DNA of 64,000 bases from Candidatus Magasanikbacteria bacterium UBA922 (GTDB taxonomy: Bacteria > Patescibacteriota > Patescibacteriia > Magasanikbacterales > UBA922). Below are positions 24,472 through 52,635 of this stretch, piece after piece. The translations under genes and the position numbers were made by a program. Position 1 is the first letter of the stretch. Every line of letters begins with the position of its first letter. The notes under the pieces were generated by a model. The model was not told the origin of the DNA and did no database searches. It was given only the letters and a program-made list of their open reading frames with translations. The stretch lies in NCBI GenBank assembly GCA_002293825.1, contig DBDW01000002.1, positions 18,059 through 82,058 of the forward strand, given 5' to 3'.

Positions 24472-24494
24472 GAGCTTCTTTTAAAAAGATAGTT

Positions 24495-24845
24495 GAACGG
24501 GCTGCCATAAGGAAGCCCGCCCTGAATCGAAAAGTGCCCGTCTTCAGCGAGACTTTTTCAGTACACGCTCATGCTGTGCAGGCAATCGACCACTGGCCGA
24601 ACTCTGCCTCCGACTGCGACTTCTCCGCGACCATTGCTGGGCAGGATGACGACGTGTCCGTATGCCACAGCGAGCACGATCCTGCTTAGCGCACCGACCA
24701 GCATGTTCTTTCTCTCGTTCACCAGGTCGAAGCTGTCTTCGTCCCGGGCCAGGAGGTACCCAGCAGAGCTGGGTCCACAGACCGATGACACACACCGAGA
24801 TAAACATGAGAGACCTCCGATTCTTGGTGTTGGAACAAGGAACTA
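24495..24845. other. GC-rich island (~350 bp, clearly >55% GC in a ~38% GC background): candidate structured ncRNA or remnant of foreign DNA
   Basis: Four mutually overlapping ORFs on both strands encode Arg/Pro-rich junk, typical of non-coding GC-rich sequence. Local hairpins are present (gggct…agccc; ccagcagagctgg). A short ACCAGGUC element weakly resembles SRP-RNA domain IV. No convincing RNase P, tmRNA or SRP consensus could be aligned by eye. Confidence 0.35.
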
Positions 24846-24936
24846 GAAAATATACTATAAAACAGTATTCAAAAAGTCAACTCTCTTGTGGTATTCAGAT
24901 ATCTTGGTTACAATACAGTTATCTAAACAATCCGCT

Positions 24937-25347
24937 ATGTATCTTCCAGAAAAAACAATCATGGCATCAGGTCCTGTCATTATTGAGAAGGATAAAGTTT
25001 TGCTCAATAAAGAGAAAAAAACAGATGGAAAAATTACACCGTGGCTTTTCCCCGGTGGCAAAGTCGAGTCGTTTGATATCTCACTTGAAGAAGCATGCAA
25101 ACGAGAAGTGATGGAAGAAATGGGGCTGGAAATAGAAATCATACGTCCACTCAAGCCCATGATTATCACTCGCCCGGACCAGCCAGACAAAATGGCGATC
25201 CTCATCCACTATCTTGCAACCCGAACCGGTGATATACAGCCAGGCGAAGGGATTGTTGAATGGAATTGGTTCGATATCAACACTCTACCCGAAGATTGCG
25301 CACCAAATGTAAAAGCAGTGATTGAAGAATATAAAAATAATGTATAA
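24937..25347 (+). CDS. NUDIX hydrolase
   Basis: Nudix box GGKVESFDISLEEACKREVMEEMGLEIEI. The start was placed at MYLPEKT (24937); the longer ORF-track start lies in the GC-rich non-coding island. Confidence 0.7.
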   Translation: MYLPEKTIMASGPVIIEKDKVLLNKEKKTDGKITPWLFPGGKVESFDISLEEACKREVMEEMGLEIEIIRPLKPMIITRPDQPDKMAILIHYLATRTGDIQPGEGIVEWNWFDINTLPEDCAPNVKAVIEEYKNNV

Positions 25348-26696: not shown

Positions 26697-27134
26697 ATGC
26701 CCACCTACATCACCCATTCAACCCACGAAACACGAGCGATCGGAAAAGATCTGGCAAAAATACTCCAGGGAGGTGATATCCTCATTCTCAAAGGGCCCTT
26801 GGGTGCTGGAAAAACTGCATTTACCAAAGGCATTGCAGAAGGGCTCGGTATTACCAAAGAGGTAACCAGTCCCACCTTTACCATTATGAGTGTTTATGAA
26901 GTTCCCGGTCATGACACTATCAAAGAATTCGTCCATGTAGATACCTATCGAGTAGAATCATACGAAGAATTACTCGAAATTGGATTCGATGAGTATCTGG
27001 GAAAACAAGATACCATTACCATTATCGAATGGCCGGAAAAAGTAGAAAAATTACTTGAAAATAGAAAACTAGTTGTCATTACGTTTGCCGCAGGAACCAC
27101 AACTGAGAGAACAATTACGATTGAAAAGGATTAA
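26697..27134 (+). CDS. tsaE: tRNA threonylcarbamoyladenosine biosynthesis ATPase TsaE (YjeE)
   Basis: P-loop LKGPLGAGKTAFTKGIAEGLGI plus the conserved TsaE core. 145 aa. Confidence 0.85.
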   Translation: MPTYITHSTHETRAIGKDLAKILQGGDILILKGPLGAGKTAFTKGIAEGLGITKEVTSPTFTIMSVYEVPGHDTIKEFVHVDTYRVESYEELLEIGFDEYLGKQDTITIIEWPEKVEKLLENRKLVVITFAAGTTTERTITIEKD

Positions 27135-27859
27135 TAAATAGAATCAGACTCTTTATTTAAAAAAGTTAATAACAGAGGATTTATTTTAACTCTTCCTGCA
27201 TCTGCTAATCCAATACCTGTCACTTCTTTAAAGAGACTAAAAGTAATTTTAAAAATATAAAGTGCCTCTTTCTTTTCGTCTTGCGAGTTATTTGACCATG
27301 CATGCAAATATTTTTTCCGACTAGTTTTTATTTTATTAAACCATTCTTTCTGAATATCAGTAATAAGTCCAAAGGCTGTCAAAATTTCTAATTTACGTTC
27401 TTGACCTAAATTTTCAAATGTCATATTAAACAGCTGTTCTTCTTGCTTCTTTGAGATAGTTTGTCCTTTTAATTTTACGTTATTAATTTTCCACATAAGT
27501 ATTGCAAGCATTTCTCCTACAACACCACAACAAGCTATAACAGCCAAATAATTACCCAGACAATAATTAATTTTAGCAAGCCGTAATGGATTGAGTAATC
27601 GATCCGATACTTCTTTAGAGTGCGGAACAATAAAACTATGGGATTCTTTAGTAGTCACCTCAACATATCGCTTCAAAATTTTTTCAGAAAGCGCAGACGC
27701 AGGTAATTCAAAAAATGATTCTAAAATAGTCCGATTAATTTCATGATTAGTACCTTTCACTAATTTTGGATCTAAAATTTTTGATATATCCTCTTTTTTT
27801 AAAAAAGGTCCAAAAAAGTTTATTTTTACATTTACTCGACTGTCCATAGAATATACCAA
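27131..27859 (-). CDS. hypothetical protein encoded by a conspicuously AT-rich gene
   Basis: 242 aa with one central hydrophobic segment (YLAVIACCGVVGEMLAILMW). The gene looks ~30% GC versus ~40% in flanking genes. Its stop overlaps the tsaE stop (convergent), and its start lies 2 nt from the rarA stop. Confidence 0.45.
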   Translation of the reverse strand: MVYSMDSRVNVKINFFGPFLKKEDISKILDPKLVKGTNHEINRTILESFFELPASALSEKILKRYVEVTTKESHSFIVPHSKEVSDRLLNPLRLAKINYCLGNYLAVIACCGVVGEMLAILMWKINNVKLKGQTISKKQEEQLFNMTFENLGQERKLEILTAFGLITDIQKEWFNKIKTSRKKYLHAWSNNSQDEKKEALYIFKITFSLFKEVTGIGLADAGRVKINPLLLTFLNKESDSIY

Positions 27860-43171: not shown

Positions 43172-44236
43172 TTACTTACCCATTTCCTTCTTAAAATAAT
43201 CAACAAACGGAATAGCGGTCGGATCAATCTTTTTGAGAAGCGCCGAATAATAGCTCACATAGCTGAAAAATACGAGACATTCGATCGCCTGGAACAACAC
43301 ATCGTTCTCTTTCGGAACAAATGTTTTATGCATAATTGAATTTTTCTGCAACACTTTCTTCGTTATGGCATATCGCTTTTGCGCGCGATCATGATACAAA
43401 CCTGATTCAATCATGACAAACAATACATTTTTAACATTCGATTTCGGGTAGAGCATTCCTTCCATAAGATGATGATTGAGTTCAGGTAGTGCAAAATACC
43501 CACCAAATCGCTTACCATTTTCATTCATTTGATTAGCAGCAACATGTGCATTCCCAAGCAAATGTTCACTTGCAACATACCAAACACTTCGATCAATTGT
43601 TTTTCGTGCCAATTGTTTTGCTGGATTTTCCAATTCAGGAGTCATAACTCCATACATCGTGTCATAGAGCGCGATCGCCTTAATTATTTCTTTAATCTGT
43701 TTTGATGAAATCTTGAATACACCGAGTTTTGAAAACAATATCAATTGTCCGACGATAGAATACCCGAGTCCCATCCGAGGCGATCCACAGGGATTATTCT
43801 CAGTGGTAAAAATCAATGCTGGATAGCCGTATTTCTGTGCGAATTCAGCAAGTGTGCCACCTGCACAAATGACTGCAATTTTCGCTTTCTTCTCTCGAGC
43901 TTTCTCGACGCAGGATACCACCTCTTCAGTCGTGCCCGAATAACTAGAACCAATAACCAAGGTCTTGGCATTCACATATCCTGGGAGATCGTATCCGTTC
44001 ACGATTTCAAGCGGATACTTAAGTTGTCGGTGATATAATGATTTGATGACATGCGTCCCGATCGAGGATCCGCCCATACCACACACCACGATCCGTTCAA
44101 TCTTCTTATAAGAAGATGGGGTACGCAGTTTTTCAGCGACCAAGGCGACTTCTTCAACTTGCTTGTACAACAACTGAAGACTTCCGAGCATATTATCCGA
44201 ATCATTTTTTTTGATAGTAATAAGAGAATCCAACAT
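43172..44236 (-). CDS. bifunctional phosphoglucose/phosphomannose isomerase (PGI/PMI, double-SIS)
   Basis: Two SIS motifs: IVVCGMGGSSIGTHV and VIGSSYSGTTEE. 354 aa. Confidence 0.7.
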   Translation of the reverse strand: MLDSLITIKKNDSDNMLGSLQLLYKQVEEVALVAEKLRTPSSYKKIERIVVCGMGGSSIGTHVIKSLYHRQLKYPLEIVNGYDLPGYVNAKTLVIGSSYSGTTEEVVSCVEKAREKKAKIAVICAGGTLAEFAQKYGYPALIFTTENNPCGSPRMGLGYSIVGQLILFSKLGVFKISSKQIKEIIKAIALYDTMYGVMTPELENPAKQLARKTIDRSVWYVASEHLLGNAHVAANQMNENGKRFGGYFALPELNHHLMEGMLYPKSNVKNVLFVMIESGLYHDRAQKRYAITKKVLQKNSIMHKTFVPKENDVLFQAIECLVFFSYVSYYSALLKKIDPTAIPFVDYFKKEMGK

Positions 44237-44286
44237 ACAAATAGATTAAATACATACATGAATCGTAGCAAATACCAGAGCATTTG

Positions 44287-44325
44287 TAAAACAAAAAAGC
44301 CCTTAAACTAAAGGCTTTTTTGAAA
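44287..44325. repeat. direct repeat A: terminator-like hairpin (A-run/stem/T-run) copy 1
   Basis: Sequence taaaacaaaaaagcccttaaactaaaggcttttttgaaac is nearly identical to copy B at 45141-45178 (one substitution plus A/T-run length differences). Confidence 0.7.
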
Positions 44326-44327
44326 CT

Positions 44328-44351
44328 GCCCCACCGTACGACTGGTGGGGC
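44328..44351 (-). terminator. GC-rich hairpin immediately 3' of the GC-rich NUDIX gene
   Basis: gccccacc-gtacgact-ggtggggc. Confidence 0.45.
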
Positions 44352-44388
44352 ACCTACACTGCGATAGATGTAGTAAACATCCTCGTTT

Positions 44389-45039
44389 TTACCGAGAAAG
44401 AGTACCAAACATACCACGCAGACCGAGGTACACGCACGCGGAATGCACATACCCATCATCGATCTCTCCAGCGAGGATCATGGTATGAACCTCTTCGGGT
44501 GAGAAAAACTCGGCATGCCGAATTCCCTCGTGCTCGTTGTTCTCGTGCTCCACGCGGCAGCCCGCTTTCGCGAGATAGAGCGGGATTGGACGTGGAATAT
44601 ACGAGGAATTACCGTGATAGTAACCGAGAAGATCGGGAGATGTGAGGACACATCCCAACTCCTCACTGCCTTCACGGATCGCCGTCTGATCAAGAGTTTC
44701 ACCCGGATCAGCAAGACCGCGCGGCAATTCCCACCGCCAGCGACCGAGCTCACTCAGACTGACGCGCCTCGGCGACACCCGCATCTCGGTAACCGGACGC
44801 CAGATGTGCACAAGTCCGAGATGTCCCCGATCGTCGAGAGCAGCGACTGCAGCAGCCGGAGGATTGTCGACGATCCAGAGATCGTAGAGACTCTTCCCGT
44901 CTTCCTGCGCCACTGCCCGTACAATCCGGGCAAACCCGTCTTGACTGAGCACAACATCGCTTTCCGATGAAGCAATCCACTTGGGACGAAAACCCTCTGC
45001 AAGTGCTTGTGACAAAGGAACAAAAGAATATCTACCCAT
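44389..45039 (-). CDS. NUDIX hydrolase encoded by a GC-rich (~55-60% GC) gene, likely horizontally acquired
   Basis: Nudix box ELPRGLADPGETLDQTAIREGSEELG. Arg/Ala/Gly-rich composition contrasts with neighbouring genes. Start trimmed to MGRYSF. Confidence 0.65.
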   Translation of the reverse strand: MGRYSFVPLSQALAEGFRPKWIASSESDVVLSQDGFARIVRAVAQEDGKSLYDLWIVDNPPAAAVAALDDRGHLGLVHIWRPVTEMRVSPRRVSLSELGRWRWELPRGLADPGETLDQTAIREGSEELGCVLTSPDLLGYYHGNSSYIPRPIPLYLAKAGCRVEHENNEHEGIRHAEFFSPEEVHTMILAGEIDDGYVHSACVYLGLRGMFGTLSR

Positions 45040-45140
45040 TGTAATCCCCTTTTCTTTTTTGCACACCGCGGGCAAAGAACCAAGCCTGTCTCCGAAATGT
45101 TCAGAGAGCACCTAAACCTAGCACATACATATGTTTTTGT

Positions 45141-45178
45141 CAAAACAAAAAGCCCTTACACTAAAGGCTTTTTGAACA
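45141..45178. repeat. direct repeat B: terminator-like hairpin copy 2 (functions as the rmlD terminator)
   Basis: Sequence caaaacaaaaagcccttacactaaaggctttttgaaca, 10 nt downstream of the rmlD stop. Confidence 0.7.
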
Positions 45179-45192
45179 GTCACATTGTTGAG

Positions 45193-46041
45193 TTATACCG
45201 TATTATTTTTTACTTTCGCATACTTCTCCATCGTATCTCTAAGTGCTATTTTTATGTCTCTCATCTCAATTCCTATTTCCTGAAGACGCGTAGATCGCAT
45301 AAAATTGTTTGAACGTTTTTTCTTTGCCAATCCTTGTAATACCAAATCTTCTTCGCTAATCCACTCATTATGATGACTTGGATCAACAAGTTCCGTATAC
45401 AGTGAAATAATTTCTTTATGACGAATTGTACCAGGATTGGTGCAATGAAAAATTCCCACACCTTTTTTCTGCATGAGTTGATAGCACGCACTGAGTAAAT
45501 CAGAAACCACCGTGACACTATTCTCCACATCTACAACCTTTGGATACGTAGTTATCTTATCAATCAAATTCGCAGGACAAGGACGATCATCAATGGGCAT
45601 ACGTAATCGAGCAATTCCAACATTTGGTAATGTAGAAAGCACTAAATCAGCAGCATATTTACTCTTACTGTAGACTGCCACAGGATTGCCATAGTCCGCT
45701 TCTGTCCACACCCCATCTTCATGAGGTGAGCGCCCATAAAAGATACACCCTGTTGCCAAATGAAGCAGATATATCCCTGCCTCCTGAGCAGCTTGTGCGA
45801 TTTGGATAGGTAGTACGGTATTACCAAAAATAGTTTCAAGCTGATGTGTTTCACACCAATCAACATTGGGTTTTCCAGTAACACCGGCAGCATTAAATAT
45901 GGAATCTGGACGATATTCACGTATAAGTGTTCGCACATCTTCAATGCTCTCAATACGAGTCGTAGAGAGTATTGCATCATCCCCCCACACTTCTTTCGCA
46001 CGAGAACCAATATATCCATTTCCAAGAATAAGAATCCTCAT
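45193..46041 (-). CDS. rmlD: dTDP-4-dehydrorhamnose reductase (RmlD-like short-chain epimerase/reductase)
   Basis: MRILILGNGYIGS…, an SDR/NAD-dependent epimerase fold, with rmlB adjacent. Confidence 0.7.
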   Translation of the reverse strand: MRILILGNGYIGSRAKEVWGDDAILSTTRIESIEDVRTLIREYRPDSIFNAAGVTGKPNVDWCETHQLETIFGNTVLPIQIAQAAQEAGIYLLHLATGCIFYGRSPHEDGVWTEADYGNPVAVYSKSKYAADLVLSTLPNVGIARLRMPIDDRPCPANLIDKITTYPKVVDVENSVTVVSDLLSACYQLMQKKGVGIFHCTNPGTIRHKEIISLYTELVDPSHHNEWISEEDLVLQGLAKKKRSNNFMRSTRLQEIGIEMRDIKIALRDTMEKYAKVKNNTV

Positions 46042-46050
46042 AAAAAATAA

Positions 46051-47055
46051 TTAACGAATTACATACTGTTTTTCATAATACTCTTGATACGTACCACTCC
46101 TAGAACGCTCTACCCATTCCTGATTATCGAGATACCACTGCACCATTTTTTTCAGACCTTCTTCAAACTTGATTTGTGGTTCCCATCCTAACTCATTTTT
46201 TGCTTTAGTAAAATCAATCGCATATCGACGATCGTGCCCTGGACGATCTTTCACATATTCAATATATGACTCGTCTTTGTGCATGTATTGTAATAATAAT
46301 TTTACCACATCAATATTCGCCATCTCACAATTTCCTCCAAGACAATACGTTTCTCCAATCGTCCCATTATTCACAATAAATTCAACACCACGAGAATGAT
46401 CATCCACGTGAATCCAATCACGTACATAGAGTCCGTCTCCGTACACCGGTACTTTTTTATCCTCCATCAGATTCGAAATACATAATGGTATAAACTTTTC
46501 CGGAAACATATATGGACCATAATTATTCGAACAATTCGAAATGGTCATCTGAATTCCAAACGTGTGATAATACGCACGTACCATATGATCCGAAGCAGCT
46601 TTCGATGCAGAATACGGACTTCGAGGATCATATGGCGTATGTTCCGTAAAAGGAGCATCACCAAATTTCAAAGCACCAAACACCTCGTCAGTAGAAATAT
46701 GATGAAAACGTTTTTGATATTCTTTTACTGCATCAAGAATATGTTGTGTCCCAATAACATTTGTTTTGATAAAAACATTAGGATCCATAATCGATCGATC
46801 CACATGGGTCTCTGCTGCAAAATGTACCACCACATCCACATCCTTAACTATCTCAAATACCATATCTCGATCACACACATCTCCTTTTACAAATGTATAT
46901 CGAGAATCATGCATAACATCTATAAGATTCTCCAAATTTCCAGCATACGTAAGCACATCAAAATTGACGATTGAATCGTTCGGATGCTTCAAAAGCCAAT
47001 AACGGATAAAATTTGAACCAATAAATCCAGCACCTCCGGTTACCATTAATTTCAT
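46051..47055 (-). CDS. rmlB: dTDP-glucose 4,6-dehydratase
   Basis: MKLMVTGGAGFIGSNF…HFAAETHVDRS…YSASKAASDHMVRAY is the RmlB signature. Confidence 0.9.
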   Translation of the reverse strand: MKLMVTGGAGFIGSNFIRYWLLKHPNDSIVNFDVLTYAGNLENLIDVMHDSRYTFVKGDVCDRDMVFEIVKDVDVVVHFAAETHVDRSIMDPNVFIKTNVIGTQHILDAVKEYQKRFHHISTDEVFGALKFGDAPFTEHTPYDPRSPYSASKAASDHMVRAYYHTFGIQMTISNCSNNYGPYMFPEKFIPLCISNLMEDKKVPVYGDGLYVRDWIHVDDHSRGVEFIVNNGTIGETYCLGGNCEMANIDVVKLLLQYMHKDESYIEYVKDRPGHDRRYAIDFTKAKNELGWEPQIKFEEGLKKMVQWYLDNQEWVERSRSGTYQEYYEKQYVIR

Positions 47056-49856: not shown

Positions 49857-50480
49857 TTAAAGTCCGTGTTTAAATAAGCTTAAAACTGCAAAGCCAATCG
49901 CAACTCCGAGAATTCCACTCGCAACTAACAAAAGAATTGGCACATCTAATACAAGTGCAATCATAATCGAACACATGGCAAGTACTTGTAAAAACATCTT
50001 TATTTTCCCCCACCGATTTGCCATCCGCACCGTCTTGAATTTGATTCGTGCAATCAATGCAGATACAATAAAAATTACTTCAATACCCAATGTTGCGATA
50101 CCGAGCCACGGATTTAGTTCACGAAACACAAGTAACAGTACCAATGAACCGACCAAAAATTTATCAGCCAAAGGATCAAGTAACATTCCAAATTTGGTAA
50201 TCTTATTCTGGGTACGAGCTAGCGAACCATCAAGCGCATCGGTAAATGCCGTACACAAAAAAGCAATAATGCCAATTATATAAAAGCCATTAAGTACCAA
50301 ATAAAATACAATCGGCGTAGCACCAACACGAAACATCGTAATACGATTAGGTGTTACCCACTCAGGGAAAATCCTGAGAATAGTGCGTGCAAAAAAATGG
50401 TCGTGCGGATGCACCTCTTCTGAAGGTAGATACACAAATAAATCACCATTCTGTTCTTTGAAACGTTTGATAAATCCCAT
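49857..50480 (-). CDS. CDP-alcohol phosphatidyltransferase family protein
   Basis: Motif DALDGSLAR…GMLLDPLADK = D(x)2DG(x)2AR…G(x)3D(x)3D. Start trimmed to MGFIK to avoid overlap with the divergent 50506 gene. A longer start (up to 50744) cannot be excluded. Confidence 0.65.
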   Translation of the reverse strand: MGFIKRFKEQNGDLFVYLPSEEVHPHDHFFARTILRIFPEWVTPNRITMFRVGATPIVFYLVLNGFYIIGIIAFLCTAFTDALDGSLARTQNKITKFGMLLDPLADKFLVGSLVLLLVFRELNPWLGIATLGIEVIFIVSALIARIKFKTVRMANRWGKIKMFLQVLAMCSIMIALVLDVPILLLVASGILGVAIGFAVLSLFKHGL

Positions 50481-50505
50481 AAAATTAGATAGACTGCTTA
50501 CCAGT

Positions 50506-52635
50506 ATGATAGCCAATATAAGCCAAAAATTCAATCTCCAGACTACCACACTCCTCGTATCCCTATGCACCATACTGCTCGAAGTATTTTTTTTCAACAT
50601 TCCCGTGCTCTCGACACCTGCAGTACTGTTGTACATTCTACTCATCGGAAAATCTATCGGAGAACGCTTTTTTGACACATCTGGACTCCAGTGGTGGGGC
50701 GGAATCGCACTCCTACTCTCTTCGGTTTCACTCATCGGAGTCATTATCTACTACCCCTACAAACTCACCCCTGAATTTTCAGTAATAACCATTGCGGCAC
50801 CACTTCTATATTTATTAAAAAAGAAAAAGAAAACAAAAATTGAGGAAAAGCCTATAGAAACATCACTCAATACACCTACAAAATTGGGCATGATAATTTT
50901 TTTAACACTTGAAATCATACTCGTGTGTACAATTATCAGTGCACGCTCGGGAGAACTGATGCGCTCACCATGGATCGCATTCGACGCATGGTTTTTTATC
51001 CTCTTTGCACTCGCCTCAAGTGTATTATTTTTTTTAATGACCCAAAAAACGAATACAAAATTCTTGATTATTAGTGCAATTTTACATCATTTCATTTTTT
51101 ACAGTATTGCAGCTATTGTCTACAAAATAGGTTTCGGATTCGATGGATTCATACACCGCGCAACCGAATCATGGATTTTAGAACATGGATTTATCACACC
51201 CAAAGAGCCATTTTATATTGGCCAATACGGATTAGTTGTAACATTTTCACGAATCACCGGCATTGCAATCGCATATATCGACATATTCCTAATTCCTGCA
51301 CTAGCAGCACTCTCAATTCCCACACTCATCCATCATGTTTTTAAAAACACCTGGAACACTACCACGAAAAACCTCGGATTAGTCCTCTCATTTGTAATTC
51401 CTTTTATATTTTTCTTTTCATTTAATCTCACTACCCCACACAATCTCACTCTTCTACTCCTCATACTAGGGATGATAAGTGTGGTGGGATATACAAGAAA
51501 AAAAATCCCCTACATTCTTCCCGCACTTATCGGACTCACCGCTCTCGGAACACACCCACTCTTAGGGGTTCCCACAATCATCATCGTACTAGTCGCAGGA
51601 ATAGTAGAAAAAACGTTGAAAAAAAATGTAAAAATTCTGACATACACAATGATGTTTGTAGCACTTTCGGTATTACCACTACTCATGTTCATGATGCAAC
51701 AATGGTTCAATGGACACGGACTCCCTACACTAGTAAATCCATTTTCAAATAGCGCACTATTTCTTGATTTTTTCAAACGTCCATTTTGGTACAAAGCAGA
51801 CGCTGTGTGGTACTTCGAAATTATATATGCATGGCAATATATGATTACCCCCATACTTCTCATCTGCGCAGGAATCGGCTTCTGGCTTCAAAAAAAGACC
51901 ACTATTGCATGGGTCTCTCTCATCTCAAGCGTGGGATTATGTATCGGTGCTTTTTTACTTCGTACACTAATCACCTTCCCCAACGTAGCATCATCAGAAC
52001 AAGGAAATTATCCATTACGACTATTGATCGGATCTGTGGCCACACTATTACCACTCGTGCTATATGGCATATATCATACAGGTAAAGCAAAAACATATTT
52101 CATACAGACAAAATTACGCATACCCACGACCATCTATTATGCCGCGGGATCACTCATCATTGGAGCACTGCTTATGTTATCATTGTACTTTTCATACCCA
52201 CAATACAATGAAAAAGTATTTTTTCCTGGGTTGAATGTAAGTGAATATGATCAAAAAGTAGTACGCTGGATCCACGAACAAAACGAGACTTATGACTATG
52301 TTGTACTCTCAACCATTCTCACGGCAGTAGCTGCATTGACAGAACATCCATTTGCATCATATATCGACACCGTGTACGGACCTCAATTTTATTATTCAAT
52401 CCCCTCGGGTGGACCATTATACCTCGCCTACGAAGAAATGGTATATCAAGGACAAAAACGAGAAACAATTGATCGTATATTTGAATTAACTAATGTGAAT
52501 ACTATCTATCTGGTGGTACCATGGTACTGGGCACGAATTGATGAAATTGTAGAAGGCGCAAAAAAAAGTGCCGATTCATGGCACTCAATTGATCATAAAA
52601 TGTGGATTTTTAAATACCTCAAACACGATAATTAG
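50506..52635 (+). CDS. large polytopic membrane protein, possible GT-C-like transferase/polymerase
   Basis: About 709 aa with ≥14 hydrophobic helices and a C-terminal soluble domain. No WWDYG (STT3) motif. The ORF track starts at a GTG at 50383; the first ATG at 50506 is used here. Confidence 0.4.
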   Translation: MIANISQKFNLQTTTLLVSLCTILLEVFFFNIPVLSTPAVLLYILLIGKSIGERFFDTSGLQWWGGIALLLSSVSLIGVIIYYPYKLTPEFSVITIAAPLLYLLKKKKKTKIEEKPIETSLNTPTKLGMIIFLTLEIILVCTIISARSGELMRSPWIAFDAWFFILFALASSVLFFLMTQKTNTKFLIISAILHHFIFYSIAAIVYKIGFGFDGFIHRATESWILEHGFITPKEPFYIGQYGLVVTFSRITGIAIAYIDIFLIPALAALSIPTLIHHVFKNTWNTTTKNLGLVLSFVIPFIFFFSFNLTTPHNLTLLLLILGMISVVGYTRKKIPYILPALIGLTALGTHPLLGVPTIIIVLVAGIVEKTLKKNVKILTYTMMFVALSVLPLLMFMMQQWFNGHGLPTLVNPFSNSALFLDFFKRPFWYKADAVWYFEIIYAWQYMITPILLICAGIGFWLQKKTTIAWVSLISSVGLCIGAFLLRTLITFPNVASSEQGNYPLRLLIGSVATLLPLVLYGIYHTGKAKTYFIQTKLRIPTTIYYAAGSLIIGALLMLSLYFSYPQYNEKVFFPGLNVSEYDQKVVRWIHEQNETYDYVVLSTILTAVAALTEHPFASYIDTVYGPQFYYSIPSGGPLYLAYEEMVYQGQKRETIDRIFELTNVNTIYLVVPWYWARIDEIVEGAKKSADSWHSIDHKMWIFKYLKHDN

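Follow-up and report, generated by a model that had tools for sequence, protein, structure and literature searches.

The 64-kb window analyzed here (64,000 nt of contig DBDW01000002.1 from Candidatus Magasanikbacteria bacterium UBA922) contains a nucleotide-sugar and glycosylation locus, in which one gene encoding a NUDIX hydrolase (NUD2) is found between an rmlD-like gene and a PGI/PMI-like gene, as the only open reading frame (ORF) between two direct copies (A and B) of a short palindromic element, hereafter called the separator or T. All these elements are on the minus strand, in the order rmlB, rmlD, copy B, NUD2, a GC-rich hairpin, copy A, the PGI/PMI-like gene and family-2 glycosyltransferases (Table 1). 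The sequences used for comparison (designated by L numbers, and individual proteins by P numbers) include 50 loci from species-representative genomes, collected with a profile of the PGI-like protein; the named genomes among them are Candidatus Magasanikbacteria or Patescibacteria. In the relatives the conserved order is HIT, NUDIX (NUD1), rmlB, rmlD, the slot under study, PGI/PMI and then four to five glycosyltransferases, downstream of which genes for a sugar-1-phosphate nucleotidyltransferase, a PEGA protein and an EPSP-synthase-fold protein are located.

Table 1. Features of the rmlD-PGI region (window coordinates; promoter and terminator assignments are predictions)
Feature	Position	Strand	Remarks
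rmlB	46051-47055	-	
rmlD-like dTDP-4-dehydrorhamnose reductase gene	45193-46041	-	conserved left flank of the slot; Pfam RmlD_sub_bind 7.5e-17; NCBIfam rmlD, E 6.1e-20, under the curated cut-off
Repeat copy B	45114-45176	-	T (A5, 7-bp stem, 3-nt loop, T5 at 45147-45173) fused to the NUDIX promoter
NUDIX promoter in copy B	-35 TTGACA 45138-45143; -10 TGC-TAGGTT 45115-45120		17-nt spacer; read from the sequence
NUDIX 5' leader, ~68 nt	45040-45108	-	small conserved hairpin; ribosome-binding-site-like aaaagggga
NUD2, 216-aa NUDIX hydrolase gene	44389-45039	-	Pfam PF00293, 46.5 bits (cut-off 21.1), E 4.9e-12
GC-rich 3' hairpin of the cassette	44328-44351	-	GCCCCACC/GGTGGGGC, gccccacc...ggtggggc; without its own U-run; 6 nt before T
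Repeat copy A	44261-44324	-	T (A6, stem, loop, T6 at 44293-44321) fused to the PGI promoter
PGI promoter in copy A	-35 TTTACA 44285-44290; -10 TACGAT 44262-44267		listed by the promoter scan as 44290..44262
PGI/PMI-like gene (bifunctional phosphoglucose/phosphomannose isomerase)	43172-44236	-	conserved right flank of the slot; Pfam bact-PGI_C 1.6e-26, and SIS; NCBIfam PGI/PMI 2.7e-70

The GC content of NUD2 is 0.556 with a peak of 0.61 (0.67, 0.46 and 0.54 at codon positions 1, 2 and 3, i.e. GC1, GC2 and GC3), against about 0.40 in its neighbors (rmlD 0.40, PGI 0.405) and 0.405 in the window. The first-pass annotation, made from the letters alone, was right to describe the gene as compositionally alien to its neighbors, and the gene is a self-contained cassette with its own (predicted) promoter, leader, ORF and hairpin. 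As the start codon we prefer the ATG to a GTG at 45111, because the relatives begin at ATG, which is preceded by the ribosome-binding-site-like sequence, and because the GTG would be located upstream of the predicted -10 box. The Nudix box is intact (GLADPGETLDQTAIREGSEELGC, residues 108-130, with the pattern G108-x5-E114-x7-R122 E123 G124 x E126 E127 x G129), and E114, R122, E123, E126 and E127 are invariant in an alignment of four orthologues; the departures from the consensus GX5EX7REUXEEXGU are Gly at U124 and, in P0003, Arg instead of G129. No subfamily was recognized by profile searches (best NCBIfam match: 24.5 bits, cut-off: 200; the NudE, ADPRase and MutT models matched weakly); the best matches among PDB structures were Ndx1 and ADPRase (E ~4e-4 to 1e-3), and the AlphaFold2 model built from four sequences (predicted local distance difference test: 40.9) was unusable. 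We also considered NUD2 as part of a defence system and rejected this for want of evidence: the one PADLOC match was weak and limited to the generic Nudix box (PDC-S07, E 1.4e-4), and the housekeeping-like NUD1 gave it too. The consensus fold of four orthologous leaders has 17 pairs, of which one is compensatory, and is weakly supported. The 3' hairpins of four NUD2 orthologues have an invariant stem with a variable loop, and RNA folding indicates that the 3' region as a whole is unusually structured (z = -6.1).

Both copies of the repeat described in the first-pass annotation are present in the same orientation (copy A: 44289-44325, aaaacaaaaaagcccttaaactaaaggcttttttgaa; copy B: 45141-45176, aaaacaaaaagcccttacactaaaggctttttgaa) and differ by one substitution in the loop and by the lengths of the A-run and T-run (6 vs 5). 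With up to 3 mismatches allowed, the window contains exactly two occurrences of the 23-nt core (0.00 expected from shuffles), at the two sites that bracket NUD2, and the pair is the top and longest direct repeat of the window, reaching 60 nt at 78% identity (44261-44320 vs 45114-45173). The extension corresponds to the predicted promoter of the following gene (copy B: TTGACA, 17 nt, TGC-TAGGTT; copy A: TTTACA, 17 nt, TGC-TACGAT). Over the 38 nt that follow the T-run, from the -35 to the -10 box, the similarity between the copies was reached by 0 of 2000 shuffles (window, L006 and L001), and the predicted NUDIX promoter is conserved in L006, L001 and L003; in this subclade a duplicated (predicted) promoter is part of the repeat.

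Copy A lies past the NUD2 hairpin, directly ahead of the PGI promoter, and copy B lies 14 nt past the stop codon of rmlD, whose terminator it is proposed to be. On the minus strand the separator has the shape of an intrinsic terminator, with a stem-loop followed by a U-run (GCCUUUA-GUU/GUG-UAAGGGC, then U5-6), and the minimum free energy fold shows the hairpin: 13 pairs in copy B and, for the repeat overall, an A/U-extended hairpin of 13-14 pairs with U-rich sequence after it. On the plus strand the stem contains a C.A mismatch, so that the better stem is formed on the coding strand. A terminator pattern scan of the window did not flag this hairpin; the likely reason is that pairing between the A-run and the T-run leaves no free tail.

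Across lineages, T is a nearly invariant 36-nt palindrome with the consensus TTC-A6-GCCTTTA-N3/4-(T)AAGGGC-T6-GTTT, whose T-run abuts the -35 box of the following promoter. The PGI-proximal T and its -35 box are nearly invariant across 10 lineages, while the hairpin, the promoter spacer and the leader are variable, and T was found only in the slot within the 7-13-kb loci examined. The strong conservation of T is probably due to a double role, as the terminator of the upstream unit and as the upstream/-35 part of the PGI promoter. As an activator site it is unlikely, given that its distance to the -35 box varies (9, 16, 21 or 22 nt after the stem) without helical phasing. Searches with Rfam matched no family in the window or the cassette region.

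Within the window the repeat is confined to the two sites, and the first-pass annotation noted that none of seven other terminators there match it. The bare hairpin core was retrieved from metagenomes in 97 stretches, none of which carries rml, PGI or NUDIX genes, and for this reason we regard AAAAGCCTTTA-N4-AARGGCTTTTT as a generic terminator shape in AT-rich genomes. Only the flanks and the position make the two copies in the window a true repeat. The same scan retrieved another hairpin-core element, '...cgtccagtNcccggagc..actta AAAAGCCTTTATTTAAAAGGCTTTTT taattaggRttaaaKaatgttcgaacttgt', which recurs in contigs of 28-34% GC (L060, L065, L068, L072, L081, L104, L111, L126 and others; two copies each, ~2.2 kb apart, in L111 and L126). 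It is unrelated to the Magasanikbacteria locus and may represent a repeated terminator-containing element of another lineage.

The slot was found empty, single, double or triple, with at least six gene families among its occupants. The empty state, for which the first-pass annotation proposed to look in related genomes, is seen in L010 (PGI 72% identical), where rmlD is followed by 115 nt with a single separator and the PGI promoter, and then by PGI; copy A of the window is the orthologue of this single copy. In many more distant genomes rmlD abuts PGI with a gap of 20-50 nt. A GC-rich islet that ends just ahead of PGI is present in ~17 of 48 loci, and the alternative cassettes have 51-65% GC vs 33-48% in their hosts. 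The occupants other than NUD2 comprise a second NUDIX family, NUD3 (L006, L008, L009, L011 and L016), a single-domain NDP-hexose (nucleoside diphosphate hexose) 2,3-dehydratase, HexD (Hexose_dehydrat), which itself has the Nudix fold (L001, L034 and L160), a NUDIX_4-like gene, NUD4 (L001 and L160), an unknown family, 'U' (L029, L031, L041 and L044), two paralogous HD-domain genes (L028) and further small ORFs (L026 and L015). NUD2 and NUD3 are marginally related (E ~1e-5); HexD, U and the HD-domain genes show no relation.

With respect to arrangement, the array rmlD-T-NUD2-T-PGI is shared by the window and L003, rmlD-T-NUD3-T-PGI occurs in L008 and L011, NUD3-T-NUD2-T-PGI in L006, NUDIX_4-t-HexD-T-NUD2-T-PGI in L001, HexD-T-NUDIX_4-T-PGI in L160 and X-T-NUD2like-T-PGI in L156. 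The suggestion that relatives lacking the gene would not carry two copies of the repeat is therefore only partly borne out, as the same separator brackets different genes elsewhere. Nearly every slot cassette ends in its own GC hairpin, located 2-6 nt ahead of T, and the related hairpins of the NUD3 cassettes covary (CCCCATCTG/CAGATGGGG, TCCCACTTG/CAAGTGGGA, TCCCACCTA/TAGGTGGGA). A deeper clade has a diverged form of the homologous terminator, AAAAACAGYCTT...AAGGCTGTTTTT, and ahead of it a conserved block of four GC-rich hairpins, common to loci with different ORFs, which indicates that at least part of the 3' structure belongs to the slot and not to the gene.

The four-hairpin block, together with the terminator, is ~110 nt long and is conserved at L016:5810-5950, L029:5793-5945 and L044:5785-5945, i.e. 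3' of different ORFs (NUD3 vs family U) and immediately upstream of the PGI promoter, with a few compensatory pairs. It had no match in Rfam (the L044 block gave noise only), and it may be a 3'UTR-derived or independent small RNA. In L028 (2968-6001) each of the two GC-rich HD-domain paralogs ends in the same ~70-nt repeat composed of a GC hairpin and a terminator, and this locus is a second, independent case in which two copies of a 3' module flank a gene of the slot. The GC-rich stretch in the slot of L015 (5650-5900) contains a ~65-aa ORF (MADEEKEAKAP...) on the opposite strand, which would be a cassette in reverse orientation.

NUD2 itself is not a newcomer. It lies between rmlD and PGI in L005 (100% protein identity), L006 (91%), L001, L002 and L007 (87%), L003 and L004 (73%) and L156 (41%), with a weaker relative in L158; this position is held in at least five other Magasanikbacteria lineages, the gene being GC-elevated in all five and bracketed by the module in four of them. 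A word-indexed search among 5.8 billion proteins returned three cluster matches, all of them syntenic (L005, 100%; L001/L002, 87%; L003/L004, 73%), to which a genome scan added L006, and a full HMMER search of 1.84 billion representatives delineated a family of ~220-aa proteins with 57 members at E<=1e-10. The nearest outgroups, P0004 (41%, L156) and P0006 (L158/L159), are again found in the rmlD-PGI slot, in related genomes of the candidate phyla radiation (CPR), and their GC3 is elevated (0.49 vs 0.29 for P0004, 0.48 vs 0.16-0.29 for P0006). Between the window and L003 the synonymous (dS) and nonsynonymous (dN) divergences of NUD2 are 1.27 and 0.165, similar to those of the flanking genes, and its synonymous sites are near saturation. 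Among the NUD2 changes specific to the window lineage, 16 are GC>AT and 4 AT>GC, and the GC3 of 0.54, below the GC1 of 0.67, suggests partial amelioration. The orthologues in the same slot, the dS relative to L003 and the GC-losing changes identify NUD2 as an old resident, which has been in the slot since before the species-level lineages split and is drifting towards the host composition in the window genome. A chimeric assembly was ruled out, since the same arrangement is found in independent ENA, NCBI, JGI and Logan assemblies.

According to the first-pass annotation, a foreign gene was recently inserted at the terminator of rmlD and the target was duplicated in the process. The contrast in composition, the direct repeats on both sides and the existence of an empty site speak for such an event, and yet we consider it very improbable, as the gene and both repeats are common to lineages at 73% and even 41% protein identity, the divergence from L003 and the GC3 speak of long residence, and no donor was found. 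The repeat, which measures 36-60 nt with the promoter included, is unlike transposition target duplications (2-15 bp), and it separates other genes as well in L008, L011, L006, L001, L156 and L160. No terminal inverted repeats were found inside the repeats, and NUD2 is the sole ORF between them. The idea of an inserted cassette was right in kind and wrong in timing and mechanism; a GC-rich gene with flanking repeats does not by itself mean recent insertion, and the anomaly here persists across species-level divergence.

Between the window and L001 the dS of NUD2 is 0.57, whereas that of HIT, NUD1, rmlB and PGI is 1.18-2.47, and this in a protein that normally evolves faster (dN relative to L156: 0.62 for NUD2, 0.23 for PGI). 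L006 (CAZNAO010000004.1) is a mosaic: its HIT-NUD1-rmlB block is near L001 (dS 0.24-0.67) and far from the window (1.4-2.0), and its PGI is near the window (dS 0.43) and far from L001 (1.78). In blastn alignments, the upstream T is the exact point from which the window is colinear with L006 or L001, and rmlD occurs in two divergent types (61% vs 86% identity). The dS pattern, the mosaic structure of L006 and the start of the blastn alignments mark the slot as a recombination breakpoint region; the lower dS of NUD2 and the mosaic further indicate that the NUD2 unit was shared between lineages after the flanks had diverged. They support exchange, which may have proceeded by homologous recombination at the flanks.

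Shared descent without any movement is an alternative: an ancient tandem duplication of NUDIX-type units with the same terminator, followed by differential loss only, with the separator kept by constraint. It would account for the long residence of NUD2 (relatives at 41% identity hold the same position), for the parallel divergence of NUD2 and its flanks between the window and L003, for the near invariance of the PGI-proximal separator, as would be expected of a constrained regulatory element, and for the Nudix fold of most slot genes. It does not account for the low dS of NUD2 between the window and L001 compared with both flanks (1.2-2.5), for the clear mosaicism of L006, or for slot families that are unrelated or related only marginally; moreover, the NUDIX_4-like gene is at host GC in L001 and has a GC3 of 0.77 in L160, which points to different residence times. 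Altogether, we regard a purely vertical history as unlikely.

The absence of an integrase nearby, remarked on in the first-pass annotation, holds for a broader neighborhood. No tyrosine or serine recombinase, transposase or Phage_integrase was found among the ORFs of window 25.4-62.4 kb (positions 1-25 kb and the rest of the genome being outside the scan). These ORFs are housekeeping or glycosylation genes (SHMT, TsaE, MgsA, PLD-like, CTP synthase, ribosomal protein L9, Era-like GTPase, S41 peptidase, EPSP-synthase fold, PEGA, nucleotidyltransferase, glycosyltransferases, DnaB, RecR and ClpB), and two had no Pfam match at E<=1e-4 (750 aa, 50383-52635, plus strand; 242 aa, 27131-27859, minus strand). 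Similarly, no recombinase was found among the called genes within 6-10 kb of the slot in L001, L003, L156 and L160, and scans of viral contigs with the separator pattern and the NUD2, NUD3 and HexD profiles revealed no related cassette protein and no T of the Magasanikbacteria type.

These negative results bear on the possibility that the slot is a site-specific, integron-like system, in which the separator (possibly with the GC hairpin) would serve as an att/attC-like site for a recombinase encoded elsewhere and the cassettes would be circular. The arrays of one to three single-gene units in the same orientation, with the same imperfect palindrome between them, the separator-cassette-separator topology vs one separator in the empty site, as expected from att x att recombination, and the conserved structured element with covariation at the 3' end of each cassette all fit this possibility, and the first two features are shared with the attC cassettes of integrons. 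The differences are the following: no tyrosine or serine recombinase beside the slot in at least eight loci or in window 25-62 kb, no attI site or Pc promoter found, cassettes that carry their own predicted promoters (TTGACA-17-TAnnnT), and a separator that is identical between cassettes, unlike attC, and lacks a GTTRRRY core (it is followed by GTTTTAC or GTTTTGA). Furthermore, the separator is restricted to one chromosomal site in the examined loci, with no copies in viral contigs, and the cassette families are limited, in the loci and collections searched, to this slot or, for HexD in L162, to another CPR rml locus. We therefore find an integron-like system quite improbable. A Xer/dif-like site was also considered and set aside, as sequence inspection indicated that the arm spacing of 3-4 nt is unfit.

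On balance, we lean towards the view that the rmlD-PGI junction is a variable slot, in which recombination at the repeated terminator leads to the gain, loss and swapping of cassettes, similarly to minimal mobile elements; the evidence favors the integron-like and the vertical explanations less. According to this proposal, each slot gene would constitute its own transcription unit, in which a sigma-70-like promoter is followed by a short leader, then by a GC-rich ORF and a family-specific GC-rich hairpin, and the separator between two units would be the intrinsic terminator of the upstream one. The PGI-proximal copy of the separator would be ancestral, and the rmlD-proximal copy would have arisen when a [separator-promoter-gene-hairpin] unit entered via homologous recombination at the separator or the flanking genes, either as a circular [T-promoter-gene-hairpin] molecule by one crossover at T (Campbell-type) or by a double crossover for which T and a flanking gene provide the homology. 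In the opposite direction, recombination between the direct repeats would result in precise loss with one copy left, as in L010, and the same repeats would permit the swapping of units between lineages. Since there is no recombinase in sight and the evidence for homologous recombination at the level of the flanks is clear, we favor a RecA-type or homology-facilitated route after DNA uptake. The NUD2 unit is an old resident, exchanged among related lineages and slowly losing GC in the window genome.

Several observations weigh against this proposal. The separator, with 30-36 nt (~60 nt with the promoter), is short for a crossover that depends on RecA, and recombination intermediates were not seen; the sequences all come from metagenome assemblies, and the comparison is between lineages rather than strains. 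The state of L010 could reflect primary absence and not excision. In the deeper lineages L158, L029 and L044 the slot gene has no flanking direct repeat, which indicates that a gene can reside in the slot without the repeat. The separator could also owe its strong conservation purely to function, as a terminator and the upstream region of a promoter, and not to recombination. Finally, orthologous cassettes that are 27-63% identical and synonymously saturated nonetheless retain a GC3 of 0.5-0.85, vs 0.29-0.50 in the PGI of their hosts, which neither simple vertical descent nor amelioration explains.

Among known systems, Neisseria provides a close counterpart in its minimal mobile elements (Saunders & Snyder 2002; Snyder et al. 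2007), which a later account describes as different whole-gene cassettes or an empty state in related genomes, without mobility genes of their own, with exchange ascribed to homologous recombination after DNA uptake (PMC3787668). Competence and pilus genes are reportedly prevalent in Patescibacteria (PMC12455944). The slot agrees with this scheme in that gene content and composition differ between the same conserved flanks, different cassettes or none being present in related genomes, with no mobility genes found. It departs from the Neisseria elements in that the units are delimited by a nearly invariant 36-nt terminator palindrome duplicated around each, in that it varies between species-level lineages and not strains, and in the nature of the cassettes, which are persistently GC-rich and encode mostly Nudix-fold or HD hydrolases.

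Loci for surface polysaccharides (O-antigen, capsule, 'replacement' flexible genomic islands) undergo recombinational replacement and have an atypical, usually lower GC content. The locus studied here resembles them in that it encodes nucleotide-sugar enzymes and glycosyltransferases, its GC is atypical, its ancestry is mosaic and its breakpoints are found at conserved flanks, but the variation is limited to a sub-slot with one to three small accessory genes and does not extend to the whole cluster, and the GC is higher than that of the genome. In E. coli the colanic acid cluster encodes a Nudix enzyme, the GDP-mannose mannosyl hydrolase (WcaH/NudD/Gmm), and NUD2 is likewise a Nudix hydrolase inside a polysaccharide/nucleotide-sugar cluster, beside genes of the mannose and rhamnose pathways, which suggests a role in the control of nucleotide-sugar pools. 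NUD2 differs from this enzyme in having no specific match to its family, the weak matches to NudE, ADPRase and MutT being far below the cut-offs. Taking into account the WcaH/Gmm precedent, the site between the rml genes and PGI/PMI with a mannose-1-phosphate nucleotidyltransferase-like gene nearby, and the alternative occupants of the slot (including other Nudix and HD hydrolases and a dehydratase domain whose substrate is the RmlB product), the substrate of NUD2 is probably a nucleotide sugar or of the ADP-ribose type. We speculate that NUD2 could act as a pyrophosphatase that tunes precursor pools for the adjacent glycosyltransferases. More generally, the slot sits inside a cell-surface glycosylation locus, and most of its families are nucleotide-diphosphate or phosphohydrolase enzymes that are likely to tune nucleotide-sugar pools.

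The persistence of high GC in saturated cassettes is, together with the clade-wide architecture of the slot, the main point of interest. Amelioration can happen, as indicated by the NUDIX_4-like gene with its different composition in L001 and L160; the GC could be kept up by repeated re-acquisition from an unsampled reservoir, by biased gene conversion at a hotspot or by selection. A bolder proposal is that the slot represents a previously undescribed cassette system, in which the 36-nt palindrome and the GC hairpin would form a recombination site for the capture, stacking and exchange of small, self-expressed genes of Nudix-fold or HD hydrolases and the high GC would be actively maintained; candidate causes would be GC-biased gene conversion at an extreme recombination hotspot, continual re-sampling of an unseen GC-rich reservoir such as the host of the episymbiont, or selection. 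We hold this to be rather doubtful. The accessory-gene gain and shuffling of CPR/Patescibacteria, organisms with tiny genomes, are poorly known, and the slot provides a concrete case that can be compared across many lineages.

With respect to a source of the cassettes, blast-type identification of a donor lineage, as advised in the first-pass annotation, led back to the same kind of locus: neither the search of 5.8 billion nor that of 1.84 billion proteins identified a GC-rich donor of NUD2, and the nearest homologues of NUD2 and of the neighboring cassette family are all in the same type of CPR locus. The HexD search gave 14 matches, and the two that were looked up (P0154 and P0163) are in CPR rml loci. 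The wider NUD2 family has the amino-acid composition of high-GC sequences (rich in Gly, Ala, Arg and Pro), and one of its members resides in a contig of 57% GC. This distant member, P0007 (GC 67%; L164:997-4666), is encoded 17 nt downstream of a gene for a 995-aa CHAT-domain protease, and the pair looks like a two-gene conflict or defence-type operon.

Elsewhere in the window, a second small GC-rich islet with a GC hairpin is present at 24490-24810 (59% vs ~40% GC), for which PADLOC reported no match. It encodes a 77-aa ORF (24558-24791, minus strand) and is located just upstream of a third NUDIX ORF (24886-25347, plus strand).

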